From: an uncultured Candidatus Saccharibacteria bacterium
GTDB taxonomy: Bacteria > Patescibacteriota > Saccharimonadia > Saccharimonadales > CAYVSP01
DNA length: 64,000 bases
Direction of reading: 5' to 3'
NCBI GenBank assembly: GCA_964584265.1
Contig: CAZOZI010000001.1
Location: forward strand, 75,691-139,690
Shown piece after piece: positions 5,661 through 27,503 of the stretch. Made by a program: the position numbers and the translations under genes. The notes beneath the pieces were generated by a model. The model saw only the letters and a program-made list of their open reading frames with translations. It made no database searches and was not told the DNA's origin. The stretch's first letter is position 1, and each line of letters starts with the position of its first letter.

Positions 5661-6605
5661 ATGTCTAAAACAATTCACACACCAGCGCTTGTCAACATTG
5701 ACGACCATGGAAAAAACAGCAGTACATTCGTAGTTGAGCCGTTGCATAGTGGGTACGGTATGACTCTCGGTAACAGTATTCGCCGTGTTCTGTTGTCCAG
5801 TATCAGCGGAGCAGCAGTTACCGCGTTTAAGATTGAAGGCATAACGCACGAGTTTACAACGTTGCCACACGTCAAAGAAGACGTGGTTGACATAATGCTC
5901 AACCTCAAAGGTGTCCGTTTTCGTGTTTTTGGTGATGACACCCAGAACTTACGCATCATTAAAAAAGGCAAGGGCGTTGTAACCGCTAAAGATATCCAGA
6001 CGAATGCCGATGTTGAAATTGTTAATCCTGAACATGTTATTGCCACACTGGAAGACGGCAAAGCCTCTCTTACCATGGATCTTGTGGTTGAAACTGGGCG
6101 TGGCTATCGAACAATTGAGGAAGGCGCAAACCGAAAAAGTAGCAGTGATACTATTGCTATTGACGCGGTTTTCAGTCCTGTAACACGTGTTCGCTACAAG
6201 GTTGAAAACACTCGTGTGGGGCAAATGACTGATCTGGATAAGCTACTCTTGAGCATAGATACAGACGGTTCTATCACACCGCGTGACGCATTTGAAGAGG
6301 CAGCTGCCATTCTGGTAAATCAATACACGGCTCTAGCCGGTCAAACTAGAGTTGAGGCGGGACCTGTACCTGGCGAACAAGCAGCCAGTGCTACTGGTGA
6401 TGACGGCGAGGAACCAACTGAGCTCATGACGTCGATTGAAGATTTGAATCTATCGGCTCGCACAACTAATGCACTGGTTAATAACGAGATACATACACTT
6501 AAAGATCTTTTTAGCTTGAGTGATGCTGAGTTACGCGACCTTAAAGGATTCGGTAGCAAAGCCTTAGATGAAGTTAAAGAGAAATTGGCTGAATTGGAGC
6601 TCTAA
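5661..6605 (+). CDS. rpoA: DNA-directed RNA polymerase subunit alpha
   Basis: 314 aa. N-terminal EPLHSGYGMTLGNSIRRVLLSSI and C-terminal domain LSARTTNALVNNEIHTLKDL. Position is S4-rpoA-L17. Confidence 0.95.
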   Translation: MSKTIHTPALVNIDDHGKNSSTFVVEPLHSGYGMTLGNSIRRVLLSSISGAAVTAFKIEGITHEFTTLPHVKEDVVDIMLNLKGVRFRVFGDDTQNLRIIKKGKGVVTAKDIQTNADVEIVNPEHVIATLEDGKASLTMDLVVETGRGYRTIEEGANRKSSSDTIAIDAVFSPVTRVRYKVENTRVGQMTDLDKLLLSIDTDGSITPRDAFEEAAAILVNQYTALAGQTRVEAGPVPGEQAASATGDDGEEPTELMTSIEDLNLSARTTNALVNNEIHTLKDLFSLSDAELRDLKGFGSKALDEVKEKLAELEL

Positions 6606-6608
6606 ATA

Positions 6609-7154
6609 ATGCATCGGCACAGTTACAAAGGCACGAAATTTCATCGAGAGCGAGATGCTCGTCGAGCCTTACTAAAAGGTTTAGCTGACTCATTGATTGT
6701 GTATGAGACTATTCAGACGACTGAGCCGAAAGCCAAAGAGCTTGTTCCTTACGTAGAAAAGCTCATCACTAAGGCAAAACGTGGTGATCTTGCTTCGCGT
6801 CGGCAACTTTTGCGCGATTTACAAACAGTAGCCAGCGCACATAAGCTCATGGATGAGATTGCGCCTAAACTAAAGAAGCGCACGAGTGGTCACCTGAAAA
6901 TCGAAAAAGAGGGATATCGACGTGGCGATAACGCAGCCTTAGCACGTGTCAGCTTTGTTGATGATATAAAAAGTAGTAAAGCTGATGAATCTGACAATCA
7001 ACCACAAAAACAAGCGCAAAAACAACAGCATGAAGATACTAAGGAGAAGAGCGAAACCTTACCAAAACCAGCAGCTGCTCGCAAAACACCATCTGCTAGA
7101 GCTACGCAAAACGTGCAAGCTCCCAAGCGCACGGGTAGAAGGGGTAATCGTTAA
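6609..7154 (+). CDS. rplQ: 50S ribosomal protein L17 with ~60-aa Lys/Gln/Glu-rich C-terminal extension
   Basis: 181 aa. The L17 core is RALLKGLADSLIVYETIQTTEPKAKEL. The tail from about nt 6960 is low-complexity (QPQKQAQKQQHEDTKEK...). Confidence 0.9.
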   Translation: MHRHSYKGTKFHRERDARRALLKGLADSLIVYETIQTTEPKAKELVPYVEKLITKAKRGDLASRRQLLRDLQTVASAHKLMDEIAPKLKKRTSGHLKIEKEGYRRGDNAALARVSFVDDIKSSKADESDNQPQKQAQKQQHEDTKEKSETLPKPAAARKTPSARATQNVQAPKRTGRRGNR

Positions 7155-22809: not shown

Positions 22810-23520
22810 GTGTCCGTTTACAGTAATATACAGATAAAACAGGCTATAAAAGAAGGCCATATTGTATTTTACCCGTATGTCGCCAAGCATATTGCCGGTA
22901 GCAGCGTAGATGTTACGCTGGGCGATTGGTTTTACCGGACAGAGAGGCCAAGTGAAGGCGGGTTTTACAACCCCTTTGATGAATCGGCCGTCAAGCAATA
23001 CTTTGGGGGTGGTCCATACCAGGCCGAGATCCACAAGGAATGGGCAGCGAAACATGGCCGCAAGTTATTTAAAAACATTCCGCCATCCCAGCGCATTATC
23101 GTAATGCGCCCTGGAGAGCGTGTACTGGCCCACACACACGAGTTTATTGGCATCAAAGCACCAGGTACGAGCACTATGCAGGCTCGTAGCACCTGGGGCC
23201 GCAACGGCGTATCAGTCTGTTTGGATGCTGGTTGGGGTGACCCGGGCTACATAAATCGTTGGACTATGGAGATCTACAATTTGAACCAACATGAAAGTGT
23301 AGTTCTGCCAGTCGGTGAGCGCATTGCCCAACTGGTTTTTTATGAAACCGGGCCTGTTGCCGATGAGTACAAAAAGCTGAGCGGCAAGTACCAGGCTACC
23401 GATAGCCAAGACCTGAAGAAATTGATTGCCAGCTGGTCGCCTGAGCAAATGCTACCCAGGGCTTACAAAGACAAGCGCCGTAAGCCAATAATCATAAAAG
23501 GGCTTAAAAGAGGCTTATGA
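22810..23520 (+). CDS. dcd: dCTP deaminase / dUTPase-superfamily protein
   Basis: 236 aa, GTG start with GGGGGAG SD. N-terminus IKQAIKEGHIVFYPY...GSSVDVTLG is typical of Dcd. Whether it is bifunctional (dUMP-forming) cannot be judged here. Confidence 0.8.
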   Translation: MSVYSNIQIKQAIKEGHIVFYPYVAKHIAGSSVDVTLGDWFYRTERPSEGGFYNPFDESAVKQYFGGGPYQAEIHKEWAAKHGRKLFKNIPPSQRIIVMRPGERVLAHTHEFIGIKAPGTSTMQARSTWGRNGVSVCLDAGWGDPGYINRWTMEIYNLNQHESVVLPVGERIAQLVFYETGPVADEYKKLSGKYQATDSQDLKKLIASWSPEQMLPRAYKDKRRKPIIIKGLKRGL

Positions 23521-25889
23521 AGATAAAACACTACGAAACTAGTGAGCCAGTGCTGGAAACACCGACTAAGCAAGGTGTTTTTATCGCCCTTGAAGGCACT
23601 GACGGTTCGGGCAAGGGGACACAATTCAAGCTTTTAACCGAAAAACTGCAGTCCGAAGGTTATGAGGTCGCTGCCTTTGACTTTCCTCAGTATGATCAAG
23701 CTTCAAGCTTTTTTGTAAAAGAATACTTAAATGCCAAATATGGCACCTCTGATGAAGTTGGACCTTACACTGCTTCGCTGTTCTTTGCCCTAGACCGCTA
23801 TCAAGCTGCACCAGCCATTCGCCGTGCACTTGATGAAGGCAAGGTTGTGCTTACAAATCGCTATACAGGCTCAAACATGGCTCACCAAGGCACTAAGTTC
23901 GATCATCCAGAAGAACGGCGTGGTTTCTTTATATGGTTGGATAATCTTGAATTTCAAATGTTGCACATACCAAGGCCTGACAAGAGTTTTATCCTGCGAG
24001 TACCTGCAGATATTGCGCAAAGATTGGTGGATAAGAAAGAAGCAAGAAACTATACGGACAAGAAGCGTGATATACACGAAGCAGACCTTAAGCACCTAAA
24101 ACTGTCTGTTGAGGTATACAACGCATTGTCAGAACTATTTCCAAGGGATTTCTTTGAAATTGATTGTGTAAGCAATGACGAACTTCTGAGCATAGAAGAG
24201 GTACAAAATAAGTTATGGCAAACTATTAAGCCGTTATTGCCGTCAAAACCTAATAAACAGAGCACAAAGGCTGAAAAAACCGCCATAATCACCAATCCGT
24301 ATGTAACACGCACGGATAAAGGCTGGGAAATAACAAGCGAAGGCCGACAGTTCTTAGATGGCATCGTCACTGACTCGACCGGGGATGTCTACGCTTTTAA
24401 TGAAAAGCTAGGAACAATGACTATTGCTGCAGCGATGGCTCGATTAAGTCGCCGTGGTGATGATATGCGTATAACCATTCTGGACGAGTTTGCCACAACG
24501 GCAGGTAAGGACGAAAAGCTCCTGCAACGCGTTATTACGGCGTACGGTGATGATTCTGTGCAGCAATTGGCCGGACAGCACATTGTAGTAGAAGGCGCCT
24601 CTAACTTACTAACCAAAAAGTTGGAGTGGGGTCGGCTGGCCGCCTATCTAGAGCAATCAACCCGTTATATCTACTTTGATCAAAAAGATAATAACGGCAA
24701 CTACCGCTACTTTACGCCACCACAGTTAAATGCACAGACCAAAAAACAATACTGCCAAACCATGGATCAGATATTTGATCTCTACTCCAAGATGGTCCGG
24801 GATCTTTCGAAGTATATTCGTGATAGTTCATCAGTTCCATTGGAGGAGCGCGACGGCGCTTGGCAAGGGGCTACGCGCGCGCAGGCCTGTGACGCGATTC
24901 GACCTGTTTTGCCCGTAGCCACCAAGGCTACAGTGGGCATTTATGGTTCGGGACAAGCCATAGAAAGCCTTATTATGCACTTGTTAAGTGATGAGCTGCC
25001 AGAAGCACAAGAAACTGGTCAAAAAATGCTTACAGAAGCTCGTAAGGTCATCGGTACGTTCTTGGAGCGAGCTGACAAGCCTGATCGCGGTGGTGCCACA
25101 ATTGCCTATTTTGCGAATACACGTCACAGCGTCAAAAAATTGGCCAAAGACTACTTACCTGATGCGCACAGTAGCGAGGCAACTGCAGTAAAGCTTACTA
25201 GCGTATGGCCGCGTAACGAACTTGAGCTTGTGCCAGACATGCTCTATGAGCACAGCAATTTATCACTAGAAGAGATACAAGAACAGGTCGAAAACTGGCC
25301 ATACGACAAGAAAATGGCCGTGTTTCAGGCCTATATGGGTGAACGGCTCAACCGTCGCCACAAGCCGGGCCGAGCACTGGAAAAAGCTCATTATAGCTGG
25401 GACTTACTTTGTGATTACGGCATTTTTCGCGATCTGCACCGGCACCGCATGGTCGATGACCTTGAGTGGCAACTACTCACACCACGCTATGGCTATGAAA
25501 TACCACAGCTGGCCGATGAAGCCGGTCTAAGCGAACTCTTTGAAGAGTGTTTTGACCTGAGCCTGAAGCTCTATAGCCAGCTGCAAGCTGGCGGTTATGA
25601 ACTTGAAGCCCAATATGCGACTCTGCTTGGCCACAGAATGCGCTGGAAGGTTACCTATAATGCTCGTGAAGCCTTCCATCTACACGAACTTAGAACAAGT
25701 CCGCAGGGCCACCCGGGATACCGCAAACTTGTCCAGCAAATGCACGAAAAGGTTGCTGAGGTGCATCCTATGCTGGCAGATGCCATGATTTTCGTGAATA
25801 AAGGGGAGGACCCGGAGTTAACGCGTTTAGCTGCTGAGCGTTACACTCAATTTAAACTGCAGCAAATCGACGACAAAGGCAACAACTAA
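23517..25889 (+). CDS. Fusion protein: N-terminal thymidylate kinase + long C-terminal ThyX-like (flavin-dependent thymidylate synthase) region
   Basis: 790 aa. Residues ~20-230 form a Tmk module (IALEGTDGSGKGTQFKLL ... TNRYTGSNMAHQG). The C-terminal ~550 aa carries ThyX-like signatures (AAAMARLSRRGDDMR; YGIFRDLHRHRMVD). ATGA overlap with dcd. Confidence 0.75.
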   Translation: MKIKHYETSEPVLETPTKQGVFIALEGTDGSGKGTQFKLLTEKLQSEGYEVAAFDFPQYDQASSFFVKEYLNAKYGTSDEVGPYTASLFFALDRYQAAPAIRRALDEGKVVLTNRYTGSNMAHQGTKFDHPEERRGFFIWLDNLEFQMLHIPRPDKSFILRVPADIAQRLVDKKEARNYTDKKRDIHEADLKHLKLSVEVYNALSELFPRDFFEIDCVSNDELLSIEEVQNKLWQTIKPLLPSKPNKQSTKAEKTAIITNPYVTRTDKGWEITSEGRQFLDGIVTDSTGDVYAFNEKLGTMTIAAAMARLSRRGDDMRITILDEFATTAGKDEKLLQRVITAYGDDSVQQLAGQHIVVEGASNLLTKKLEWGRLAAYLEQSTRYIYFDQKDNNGNYRYFTPPQLNAQTKKQYCQTMDQIFDLYSKMVRDLSKYIRDSSSVPLEERDGAWQGATRAQACDAIRPVLPVATKATVGIYGSGQAIESLIMHLLSDELPEAQETGQKMLTEARKVIGTFLERADKPDRGGATIAYFANTRHSVKKLAKDYLPDAHSSEATAVKLTSVWPRNELELVPDMLYEHSNLSLEEIQEQVENWPYDKKMAVFQAYMGERLNRRHKPGRALEKAHYSWDLLCDYGIFRDLHRHRMVDDLEWQLLTPRYGYEIPQLADEAGLSELFEECFDLSLKLYSQLQAGGYELEAQYATLLGHRMRWKVTYNAREAFHLHELRTSPQGHPGYRKLVQQMHEKVAEVHPMLADAMIFVNKGEDPELTRLAAERYTQFKLQQIDDKGNN

Positions 25890-26143
25890 ATATCTTCTCG
25901 TGGCCTTACTCTTGCAATAACTGTATCTTCGCTGCGCCCAAAGGGGCTTACTTCAACTGTAACAAAATGGAGCAATGGGCCAAGCTGTGTTTGAAGCGAG
26001 ACAATTTCTGGAACAACGTCAGTAATATAGCCATGCGCAATAATCATATCGCCGTCAGCTTTTCGTATTTGTCCGAGTAGCGCTGCAGAATTCATATGCT
26101 GTTGTTCGTCGCCACCATGTAGCGTGTCTGGTGATATAGCCAT
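25886..26143 (-). CDS. Hypothetical protein (85 aa)
   Basis: ATG at 26143 preceded by GAGGAAG (26152-26146). The 3' end overlaps the thyX-fusion stop by 4 nt (convergent). No homology recognised. Confidence 0.5.
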   Translation of the reverse strand: MAISPDTLHGGDEQQHMNSAALLGQIRKADGDMIIAHGYITDVVPEIVSLQTQLGPLLHFVTVEVSPFGRSEDTVIARVRPREDI

Positions 26144-26157
26144 TACTTCCTCTTGAC

Positions 26158-26190
26158 TTAAAAAACCGGCTCTTTTGGTTGGAGCCGGTT
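26158..26190 (-). terminator. Rho-independent terminator/attenuator inside the 5' leader of the 85-aa ORF
   Basis: Minus strand AACCGGCUC-CAACCAAAA-GAGCCGGUU followed by U7. It lies only about 5 nt upstream of the SD of the ORF starting at 26143. Confidence 0.65.
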
Positions 26191-26320
26191 TTGTTTATGT
26201 TGCTTTTGACTTGTGCTAACACGGGCTCCAATCTATTTTGCGGCAATAAATACCATGCCGTAAGTGCGGCAGATAGTATGCTTGGCAATAAGATTGGATA
26301 GTTGTGTTATCACGAAAACT
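26191..26320 (-). promoter_or_regulatory. Structured leader (long imperfect hairpin plus antiterminator segment), riboswitch/attenuator-like
   Basis: P1 is CCAAUCU (26297-26291) / AGAUUGG (26234-26228), closing helices UUGC/GCAA, AUACUA/UGGUAU and UGCCG/CGGCA. UUGGAGCC (26231-26224) is complementary to GGCUCCAA (26186-26179) in the terminator. Confidence 0.45.
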
Positions 26321-26321
26321 A

Positions 26322-26350
26322 AATGTACACTCGCAAAAAGGACTTGTCAA
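26322..26350 (-). promoter_or_regulatory. Putative sigma-70-type promoter (minus strand)
   Basis: TTGACA (26350-26345), 17-nt spacer, TACATT (26327-26322). Confidence 0.45.
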
Positions 26351-26383
26351 CGCTTTTATTTGGTTGTAACGTAGTAGTGATAT

Positions 26384-26521
26384 GGCTTTAAACGCATTGA
26401 AGCAATTAGGACTCCTCCTCGGCCTTACAGGGCTGTGCTTCAGTATGGTTGAAGCCTGAGCGTTTAAACGCCTTAGCACAGCCCAAGCAACAGGCTTCAC
26501 CCAAGAAGTCTGTTTTAATTT
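26384..26521 (+). promoter_or_regulatory. Structured leader with mutually exclusive helices upstream of the 79-aa ORF
   Basis: 10-bp helix GGGCUGUGCU (26430-26439) / AGCACAGCCC (26475-26484). Hairpin GCUUCA/UGAAGC (26437-26455). Palindrome GCGUUUAAACGC (26460-26471). UGAAGCCUG (26450-26458) pairs alternatively with CAGGCUUCA (26491-26499). Weak terminator-like GGCUUC/GAAGUC plus a U-rich tract (26493-26521). Confidence 0.35.
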
Positions 26522-26534
26522 AAAGGAGAAAGTG

Positions 26535-26771
26535 ATGTCTGAAAGTAACGAAGTTTATGCAAGAACTGTAGGTGAAGGTGATGATAGTGGTATTTATATA
26601 GTCCAAACTCCTGAAGGAATTTCAGTTGAGTACCAACCCCATAAAACATGCCCTGCTAAATCGATGCAAATATTCAGGGAGGTAGAAGTTCATCCCGTAC
26701 CTGATGCAGGTCAAGTAGAAGCCACTATTATAGTGAAGGTTCCGGTCGTAGATCGTAATCTGCCAGCTTGA
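26535..26771 (+). CDS. Hypothetical protein (78 aa)
   Basis: AAGGAG at 26523-26528, 6 nt before the ATG at 26535 (a GTG at 26532 is also in frame). No homology recognised. Confidence 0.5.
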   Translation: MSESNEVYARTVGEGDDSGIYIVQTPEGISVEYQPHKTCPAKSMQIFREVEVHPVPDAGQVEATIIVKVPVVDRNLPA

Positions 26772-26794
26772 CTTAACAGAGATAGTCATATAAT
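26768..26794 (+). promoter_or_regulatory. Putative promoter for rplJ-rplL
   Basis: TTGACT (26768-26773) and TATAAT (26789-26794), both near-consensus, but the spacer is only 15 nt. Confidence 0.35.
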
Positions 26795-26800
26795 ATCTAT

Positions 26801-26972
26801 CTGTTACCAAAGACAGTGACGGCCGAGAGGTTTGATAATGTCACCGAGGTGCATACAATTCATTTTGTTTTGTGAGCACAACTGAAGCTTCTGGTAACAG
26901 GAGCTTTTTGGTTACAAGACAGTAATTTTGGTCGAGAATTCCTGTCTCAACTCATAAAAGGAGAAGTCAAAC
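26801..26972 (+). promoter_or_regulatory. rplJ (L10) 5' leader with internal terminator-like hairpin
   Basis: About 170 nt untranslated leader. Hairpin GUGAC...GUCAC (26816-26844 region). AGCUUCU-GGUAAC-AGGAGCU followed by UUUU (26886-26909) looks like an attenuator. AAAGGAG SD lies before the ATG at 26973. Confidence 0.5.
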
Positions 26973-27503
26973 ATGGCTTTGACCAAAGAAAAGAAGCATG
27001 AAGTCGTTGATGAAGTCAGCAAGTTGCTGAGCGACTCTAAAATGACAGTGCTGGCCCAATATCAGGGAACCCCTGTGAAGGCTATGCAAACCTTACGGCA
27101 TGACGCCAAAGCAGGTGGTACGGTTGTAAAAGTAGTTAAGAACCGCTTGGTTTTGCAAGCTATTAAGCAATCTGAGGTTTTTAAAGACGTGGATGCGAAT
27201 GTATTTAATGGCATGTTACTCTACGCTTTTAACGCAAACGATGAAGTTGCACCAGCCCAGGTGCTGGCTGCTTTTGCCAAAACTCAACCATCACTACAGT
27301 TCGTTGGAGCACTGACAGCTGAAGGCGAGCTACTAAGCGCTGACGATGTTAAAGCATTAGCTAGCTTGCCGCCCAAAGAACAGTTGCGCGGTCAAGTAGT
27401 CGGAATTTTGGCAGCACCACTGAGCGGTTTTGTTAGCGTGTTATCCGGCAATATACGCGGAGTTCTGAGCGTCTTGCAAGCCCGTAGTGAAGCAATAAGT
27501 TAA
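26973..27503 (+). CDS. rplJ: 50S ribosomal protein L10
   Basis: 176 aa. Typical L10 N-terminus [19 protein letters not shown]...[13 protein letters not shown]. Precedes rplL. Confidence 0.95.

Follow-up and report, generated by a model that had tools for sequence, protein, structure and literature searches.

Within a 64,000-nucleotide (nt) stretch of the genome of an uncultured Candidatus Saccharibacteria bacterium (contig CAZOZI010000001.1, positions 75,691 to 139,690; hereafter the window, in whose coordinates all positions are given) we analysed a minus-strand segment, 26350-26144, that has the outline of a transcription attenuator. The genes of this neighbourhood lie nearly all on the plus strand, and the segment, together with the open reading frame (ORF) of 85 amino acids (aa) that follows it, is the minus-strand exception. 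This ORF (25886-26143, minus strand) is the gene that the segment would regulate. It is convergent with tmk-thyX (23517-25889, plus strand), whose end it overlaps by 4 nt, and which encodes a 790-aa fusion of thymidylate kinase (PF02223) with the flavin-dependent thymidylate synthase ThyX (PF02511). On the other side of the segment, the plus strand carries a second, divergent leader and then the leader of ribosomal protein L10 with rplJ. To our knowledge, gene regulation in Saccharibacteria and other bacteria of the candidate phyla radiation (CPR) is almost uncharted, and very few of these organisms are culturable.

The segment opens with a strong sigma-70-type promoter, identified by direct reading and by a consensus scan, with a -35 box TTGACA at 26350-26345, a 17-nt spacer and a -10 box TACATT at 26327-26322 (10 of 12 consensus matches). 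Such a match is unremarkable by itself (4 promoter-like sites per 1.6 kb, compared with 2.8 expected). The -35 box is invariant in all 12 members of the family described below, and TAnnnT stands at the same spacing in each of them. Past the promoter, the RNA was predicted to fold into a hairpin of about 100 nt in total. Its outer helix, P0, is formed by 26313-26304, a strand that holds a GUG start codon and was seen in both the minimum free energy (MFE) and the centroid fold, and by 26222-26213, which was supported by the fold, by covariation and by RNAalifold. P0 encloses a second helix, P1, in which CCAAUCU (26297-26291) pairs with AGAUUGG (26234-26228). The 5' strand of P1 (region 1, CCAAUCUU, 26298-26291) rests on the fold and on covariation, as does the apical domain P2-P4 (26288-26238; covariation helices 3-6), which includes the stem UGCCG/CGGCA with the loop CACUUA.

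The 3' strand of P1 belongs to region 2 (AGAUUGGAGCCCGUG, 26234-26220), which doubles as the antiterminator strand and was delimited by duplex energy. The core of region 2, UUGGAGCC (26231-26224), is perfectly complementary to GGCUCCAA (26186-26179), which, as region 3, is part of the 5' arm and loop of an intrinsic terminator (26192-26160; AAAACCGGCUC/CAACCAAAA/GAGCCGGUUUU, followed by further U residues) that was recovered by the fold and by a terminator scan. The terminator has a stem at 26192-26162, whose 3' arm is region 4, a strength of -15 kcal/mol and a run of six U (26165-26160), and 17 nt separate its end from the ATG at 26143 with which the 85-aa gene begins. The Shine-Dalgarno (SD) sequence of that gene, GAGGAAG (26152-26146), is found 7 nt past the U run and 2 nt ahead of the ATG. 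The 181-nt leader folded at -52.4 kcal/mol, compared with -34.1 +/- 4.2 kcal/mol for shuffled sequences (z = -4.35; none of 200 shuffles was as good). An initial annotation of this DNA had located the promoter, P1, the antiterminator complement, the terminator and the SD sequence with its ATG on the minus strand where we find them. It had given the terminator seven U in place of six, and the imperfect hairpin of about 22 base pairs (bp) that it described is present and proved to extend further, with P0 around P1.

Relatives were sampled through the neighbouring Tmk-ThyX fusion protein, by which 18 syntenic loci were retrieved, all 18 of them in metagenome-assembled genomes of Saccharibacteria (Saccharimonadales). 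When 25886-26980 was compared with these loci by blastn, the flagged segment had no match, which wrongly suggested that it was not conserved. Reading of one locus, L001, by eye revealed the same layout in a different sequence. With the window as its only source, a first covariance model (R1) picked up L001, L039, L038, L040 and L041 and, weakly, L035. A second model, made from six relatives with the window left out (R2), scored the window at 156 bits (expectation value E = 1e-31) and added L044, L045, L047, L009 and L013. The family consists of 12 distinct members, the window and 11 other Saccharibacteria. All 12 lie just downstream of tmk-thyX, on the opposite strand and ahead of one or two co-oriented genes, and in each an intrinsic terminator separates the leader ORF from the gene; L049 and L042, which have no minus-strand gene at this position, have no element either. 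We found that the promoter, the ORF, three alternative helices and the terminator are conserved, and that the leader is far better conserved than the genes that come after it. The element is a new family of a known kind of regulator; neither Rfam nor NCBIfam contains it, literature searches did not turn it up, and such regulation is previously undescribed in the host phylum. A metagenome scan with the pattern TGATAACA-N(18-44)-CTGCCGC-N5-CGGCAT returned 16 loci, all of them chance matches in unrelated sequence. The second model also matched an unrelated low-GC metagenome contig at 26.8 bits (L029, 11023-11198, minus strand), which was similar in architecture and was rejected as a family member. 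In that match a strong terminator comes after a short ORF rich in Phe and Tyr, MKSFFGAFYYFFYFYFSNEVKREGIALK, an arrangement that resembles a classical aromatic-amino-acid attenuator.

The long hairpin contains an ORF of 26 codons plus a stop codon (26313-26233, minus strand; GUG at 26313-26311, UAG at 26235-26233), with the predicted peptide MITQLSNLIAKHTICRTYGMVFIAAK. Region 1 coincides with codons 6-8 and the apical domain with codons 9-25, and region 2 begins 1 nt into the stop codon. A leader ORF whose stop codon abuts the antiterminator strand is a hallmark of ribosome-mediated attenuation, and it had been missed in the initial annotation. Because the GUG lies only 8 nt past the -10 box and has no SD sequence, a leaderless mRNA is probable. 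All 12 members have an ORF of 23-31 codons at this place, starting 7-11 nt past the -10 box, and in 11 of them the stop codon falls 0-7 nt ahead of the UUGGAG core of region 2. The family peptides can be aligned, as illustrated by L039 (MRNLLQTISLKHLCRPMYGFVLIAAK), L040 (MRNLLQTIIAKHTCRPFGYVLVMA), L044 (MITKLQTLFAQHMPCRKYGLVLIMAK) and L035 (MATLHQTIVKIWQYRPYGIVLVFA), and have the consensus M-x-x-L-L-Q-T-I-x-A-K-H-x-C-R-P-x-Y-G-x-V-L-I-A-A-K.

What is conserved in the leader peptide is its amino-acid sequence and not the identity of its codons. Among the six closer sequences, differences amounted to 0.56 at third codon positions (0.51 in the closest four) and to 0.30-0.40 at first and second positions. 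Synonymous change was observed at Leu4, Thr6, His11, Arg15, Pro16, Tyr18, Gly19, Val21 and Ala25; the codons seen include GCA, GCU, GCG and GCC for Ala25, CUA, CUC and CUU for Leu4, CAU and CAC for His11, CCA and CCU for Pro16, and GGC and GGU for Gly19. The ratio of nonsynonymous to synonymous differences (pN/pS) in frame 0 was about 0.36-0.6 in six of seven closer pairs and 0.8 in the remaining pair, L035-L040, while in the other two frames it was about 0.7-1.9 and always above that of frame 0. These patterns of substitution suggest, with moderate confidence, that the leader ORF evolves as a coding sequence. Furthermore, the G of the start codon is retained within P0 opposite a partner that is either C or U (GC in five sequences, GU in four), and the start codon was wholly or partly base-paired within P0 in the MFE fold of all ten members that were folded, both of which support a real start codon.

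Covariation was measured on an alignment of ten members fitted to the covariance model (A8). In this alignment 87.8% of the cells were paired, compared with 70.8% when partners were shuffled and 31-43% in slid controls, and both sides had changed in 29 of 44 pairs. Changes on both sides affected 7 of 9 pairs in P0 (helix 1 of the alignment; 94% of cells paired), 6 of 8 in P1 (helix 2) and 6 of 11 in the terminator (helix 7; 89.6% of cells paired). RNAalifold returned 33 pairs on the same alignment, 22 of them compensatory. In addition, the members folded singly, with no alignment involved, into a long hairpin and a terminator.

The alignment is out of register at the antiterminator helix, and duplex energies were computed there for each sequence, with shuffle and cross-pairing controls. 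The antiterminator duplex of the window had an energy of -16.0 kcal/mol, a value that only 1 of 500 shuffles equalled. For the terminator 5' arm and loop, the strongest pairing partner in each of the 12 members was the 3' strand of P1 running on as UUGGAG, and this strand was always at or just past the leader stop codon. The duplex reached -14 to -20 kcal/mol in 11 of the 12, on a par with the terminator hairpins, and the number of equally good shuffles in 500 was 0-3 in eight members, 8-16 in three and 50 in L038. Cognate pairs of region 2 and terminator averaged -16.4 kcal/mol, compared with -13.7 kcal/mol for non-cognate pairs (16 of 20,000 permutations were as good). The strands of region 2 and of the terminator 5' arm that pair are UUGGAGCC with GGCUCCAA in the window, UUGGAGUCC with GGACUCCAA in L039, UUGGAUC with GAUCCAA in L035 and GUGCUGGA with UCCAGCAC in L009. 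The three helices 1:2 (anti-antiterminator), 2:3 (antiterminator) and 3:4 (terminator) were found to be mutually exclusive. The overlap between 1:2 and 2:3 comprises only UUGG and the P0 clamp in the window, and 6-7 nt in the relatives. Attenuation through competition between P1, the antiterminator and the terminator had been proposed in the initial annotation, which named covariation among relatives as the check and a lack of conservation as the finding that would count against it; across 12 genomes the arrangement is conserved with compensatory changes.

We consider it reasonably probable that the flagged segment, conserved in Saccharibacteria, attenuates transcription in a ribosome-dependent way by means of a leaderless leader peptide. 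In the mechanism that follows, we infer where transcription starts, that the ORF is translated, which sign the response has and what kind of signal sets it. Judged by the promoter spacing, the transcript would start at or within a few nucleotides of the GUG at 26313, and burial of the start codon in P0 would allow ribosomes to load only while the leader is being synthesized. With no ribosome on the RNA, the hairpin would form as anti-antiterminator, the terminator would form after it, and transcription would end near 26160. A ribosome held within the ORF would occupy or unwind the 5' half of the hairpin, including region 1, and region 2 would be set free. Region 2 could then capture region 3 before region 4 is made, and the polymerase would read into the 85-aa gene. 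A ribosome at the stop codon would cover region 2, so that the terminator would form. The short distance from terminator to ATG leaves no room for a separate promoter, suggesting that the 85-aa gene is expressed by read-through only.

Since the peptide is conserved and has no codon run, a stall set by the nascent peptide or by the general status of translation is more likely than one set by a single charged tRNA. The lack of a codon run, together with downstream genes that match nothing in Pfam and share no homology with one another, indicates that the element does not belong to the classical attenuators of amino-acid biosynthesis. We also considered one conserved Cys codon as an amino-acid sensor and rejected it, as Cys occurs in only 8 of the 12 minus-strand leaders and is exchanged for Arg, by an RNA-compensated change, in the plus-strand leaders described below.

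Several observations weigh against a ribosome-dependent attenuator. With regard to the structure, RNAalifold found no pairs on a plain MAFFT alignment of the 12 members; plain MAFFT alignments put the helices out of register, and the covariation counts depend on the model-fitted alignment. When the first 48 nt were masked to mimic a stalled ribosome, the antiterminator was the MFE structure in only 3 of 10 members, so the switch would have to be kinetic. Stalling at the conserved CRPxYG codons would leave region 1 outside the direct footprint of the ribosome. With regard to the ORF, the same bases are under both RNA-pairing and coding constraint, so that the one signal is partly confounded with the other. 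No more than six sequences are similar enough to inform the comparison, all 12 together being near saturation (0.53, 0.50 and 0.60 at the three codon positions), and frame +2 is also free of stop codons in 7 of the 12 members. The start codon has no SD sequence in any member (GUG in nine, AUG in three), leaderless translation in Saccharibacteria is an assumption, and the transcription start site is placed by promoter spacing only. In L009 the ORF extends 18 nt beyond region 2. There is no run of regulatory codons in the family's leader peptides, and five minus-strand and two plus-strand leader peptides had no match in NCBIfam at E <= 10. Finally, the genes after the leader are orphans of 85 to 362 aa with no Pfam match.

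The selection on the peptide sequence, and the conservation of the leader far beyond any downstream gene, would also be expected of an independent micro-gene or small RNA, whose micropeptide and/or RNA of about 155 nt acts in trans while read-through is incidental or a constitutive leak. A terminator with -15 kcal/mol and a U run would suit such a unit, and trans-acting attenuator RNAs and leader peptides are known, as for rnTrpL and peTrpL of Sinorhizobium meliloti (PMC6614838, PMC7298713). We nevertheless regard this explanation as unlikely. The 85-aa gene has a coding signature, an SD sequence just past the U run and no space for a promoter; a co-oriented gene follows the terminator in 12 of 12 genomes; and the co-varying complementarity of regions 2 and 3 would have no role in a simple terminated gene. 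The proposal is compatible with attenuation, and is partly an addition to it and not an alternative.

The window contains two copies of UAUUGCC (26290-26284 and 26248-26242), one in each internal-loop strand, as the initial annotation had reported when it suggested a site for a dimeric RNA-binding protein. A protein, possibly bound as a dimer to the two copies, might set the choice between terminator and antiterminator, which would be in keeping with the conserved structure and with the presence of a protein-controlled leader, that of L10, in the same locus. However, the heptamer repeat is not kept in the relatives, which have UAUCAGCC, UAUUCGCA or GUUAUGGCG there, and across the family these positions are the codons Ile-Ala and Ile-Ala-Ala. 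Control by a protein, for which no candidate regulator is conserved beside the element and which would leave the coding-type substitutions and the positions of start and stop codon unexplained, is thus quite improbable.

We judged a metabolite- or ion-binding riboswitch to be very improbable. Here the hairpin would be an aptamer whose ligand stabilizes P1 and P0 and favours the terminator, and the covarying structure joined to a terminator/antiterminator platform, like the fold z-score of -4.35, fits that description. Against it, a scan with Rfam 15 found no family that reached its gathering threshold, either for the window or for the 11 relatives, and at E <= 10 the stretch 25850-26980 gave none but terminator-only matches. 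The initial annotation could not assign the hairpin to a known riboswitch class. The Rfam family Thr_leader matches the window's terminator only (17.4 bits, compared with a gathering score of 55). The apical loop varies among CACUUA, CCCAUU, CCCAAUGUA, AUUGG and others, the internal loops differ between members in both size and sequence, no multi-helix junction is present, and P0 and P1 (about 17 bp) would be stable without a ligand. Those bases that are conserved fall in helices, codons and the UUGGAG/CUCCAA strands, and coding together with the mutual complementarity of regions 1, 2 and 3 accounts for them. Furthermore, a riboswitch would not account for the conserved ORF with its start and stop positions, and the downstream genes are unrelated orphans that do not represent one pathway. 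The sensor envisaged in the initial annotation, whether a ligand-binding RNA or a dimeric protein site, was most likely wrong, and the hairpin is most likely a translated leader ORF. There was no Rfam or ARAGORN support for the hairpin as 6S RNA, signal recognition particle RNA, RNase P RNA or transfer-messenger RNA, and these candidates were rejected.

A chance hairpin beside a bidirectional terminator that ends the convergent tmk-thyX transcription, for which the plus-strand terminator score of 26162-26192 and the A-rich upstream linker would speak, is extremely improbable given twelve homologous covarying copies, an invariant promoter and the fold z-score.

A leader-peptide attenuator of this kind has a close counterpart in the ilvBNC operon of Corynebacterium glutamicum, whose attenuator has three hairpins, the first of which sequesters the start codon of a leaderless leader peptide (PMC11857589). 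In both, a leaderless ORF is combined with a first hairpin that hides the start and acts as anti-antiterminator, a second alternative helix that is the antiterminator, and a third that is the intrinsic terminator before the structural genes, although for the Saccharibacteria element these roles are predicted. They differ in that the ilvB leader contains stretches of Ile, Val and Leu codons and the operon under its control serves the corresponding biosynthesis, whereas the Saccharibacteria element has no codon run, a conserved peptide, its whole ORF within one hairpin of about 100 nt, and orphan targets. No sequence homology between the two was detected. The alternative pairings 1:2, 2:3 and 3:4 are also those of the enterobacterial trp, his, leu, thr and pheA attenuators, as are a stop codon a few nucleotides before region 2, such that a terminating ribosome would mask region 2, and a distance of about 75 nt from stop codon to terminator end; unlike the element, the enterobacterial leaders have an SD sequence and runs of regulatory codons.

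Leaders that sense antibiotics or metabolites through the nascent peptide, a group that includes TnaC, offer a further comparison. As in Bacillus subtilis bmrB-bmrCD (PMC4191407), mef/mel (PMC4335068) and the erm leaders (PMC8274638), the peptide sequence and not a codon run would set stalling, and in the case of bmrCD and mef/mel it is a transcription terminator that responds to the stalled ribosome (PMC4191407, PMC4335068). In contrast to those leaders, the Saccharibacteria element has no resistance or catabolic gene downstream and no known arrest motif, and stalling here is only predicted. Mycobacteria possess leaderless polycysteine sensory short ORFs (10.1101/834739), which likewise form a leaderless sensory first cistron in which the ribosome position controls an RNA structure that gates downstream genes. 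The mycobacterial ORFs carry Cys runs and act on translation by sequestering the ribosome-binding site, whereas the Saccharibacteria element would gate an intrinsic terminator and has at most one Cys codon (in 8 of 12 members). In S. meliloti, the RNA and the leader peptide released from trpL have functions of their own (PMC6614838, PMC7298713), which would fit the peptide conservation seen here; trpL differs from the element in having Trp codons and in controlling trpE(G), and a trans function of the Saccharibacteria leader RNA or peptide is pure speculation.

A tentative extension of ribosome-dependent attenuation, which we hold to be doubtful, is that the conserved peptide of 24-26 residues ending in ..CRPxYGxVLIAAK is a nascent-chain sensor, made from a leaderless mRNA that begins with GUG and lies wholly within a hairpin. 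Its arrest, brought about by a host metabolite or a ribosome-targeting compound, would switch on the hypervariable orphan genes of these bacteria, which are episymbionts with reduced genomes, while a second peptide, ..GLCFSMVEA, would sense for the divergent neighbour. The two would constitute a hitherto unseen peptide-based regulatory layer of the CPR, with the released peptide or RNA possibly acting in trans, and the first peptide would represent a new arrest-peptide family. For the attenuator as such, the family would imply transcription-translation coupling and leaderless initiation in the phylum. In practical terms, the 26-codon ORF should be annotated, and the hairpin should be kept out of lists of candidate riboswitches.

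We then considered the genes at the locus. The 85-aa ORF had a codon-usage score of 0.259, compared with an in-frame mean of 0.242 (standard deviation 0.082) and an out-of-frame mean of -0.47 for the window, and its codon usage is that of a genuine gene of the host genome. No homologue was found among 5.8 billion proteins, nor among 1.84 billion representatives searched with full HMMER, where the only other hit, P0122, was rejected as a low-complexity repeat protein. The ORF had no match in Pfam or NCBIfam, and a single-sequence AlphaFold model of the protein had a mean confidence (pLDDT) of 62, too low for a fold search. Homology of the 85-aa ORF to its positional counterparts in L001 or L044 was rejected, as was a paralogous relation to the 79-aa ORF of the plus strand. 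The genes after the leader are mostly without detectable homology to one another. A motif, F(N/S)AY(F/Y)VMxEEPxH, is common to the products of 161 aa in L039, 159 aa in L040, 139 aa in L047 and perhaps 123 aa in L035. Two of these loci, L039 (about 6060-6185, minus strand) and L040 (about 6725-6857, minus strand), share a segment CAUGG(G/A)AGCA(U/C)CGCUUCCA(C/A)(C/G)UUC about 60 nt past the leader terminator. This segment, which has no counterpart in the window, may form a further hairpin or open another small ORF (M-G/E-A-S/P-L-P).

These genes belong to a hypervariable island between tmk-thyX and the L10 leader with rplJ, which spans 25890-26970 in the window and has equivalents in L001-L049. 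The attenuator family marks this island, and its orphan genes would be under tight control, probably linked to stress or translation. Tmk-ThyX at the border of the island has about 3,900 homologues at E <= 1e-100, and as the closest of them is only 76% identical, the window's genome has no close sequenced relative.

A second conserved leader, divergent from the flagged one, was found on the plus strand at 26380-26520. It has no match in Rfam and is present in 11 Saccharibacteria loci (in two copies in L003), ahead of non-homologous small ORFs. This leader contains a leaderless-looking ORF of 25 codons (26382-26459, plus strand) with the predicted peptide MALNALKQLGLLLGLTGLCFSMVEA, which is Leu-rich (CUC CUC CUC) and belongs to a family consensus ..LLLxLxGLCF(S/T)M(V/T)EA. 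In these plus-strand leaders Cys swaps with Arg through an RNA-compensated change. The stop codon UGA lies within GAAGCCUGA, and GAAGCCUGA is complementary to the 5' arm, CAGGCUUC, of a terminator at 26489-26514 (plus strand), after which come an SD sequence and the 79-aa ORF (26532-26771, plus strand). From its sequence, this element appears to be a second leader-peptide attenuator with an unrelated peptide. The ribosome-mediated reading of the flagged segment is strengthened by the occurrence of the same design twice, with unrelated peptides, in one intergenic region, and this two-fold use suggests a general regulatory style in these genomes. The region thus offers two testable conserved cis-regulatory families, both of which apparently combine a leaderless leader peptide with an intrinsic terminator.

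The terminator of the flagged segment lies between an A-rich stretch and the U run, and the hairpin at 26162-26192, followed by GTTTATGTT, also scores as a plus-strand terminator about 270 nt past the tmk-thyX stop codon. It is probably bidirectional and, when acting on the plus strand, may shield the plus-strand attenuator from read-through. Farther along the plus strand, Rfam identified the ribosomal protein L10 leader (RF00557, 47.2 bits) at 26789-26919, upstream of rplJ (26973-27503) and rplL, and the same leader was found in seven relatives.

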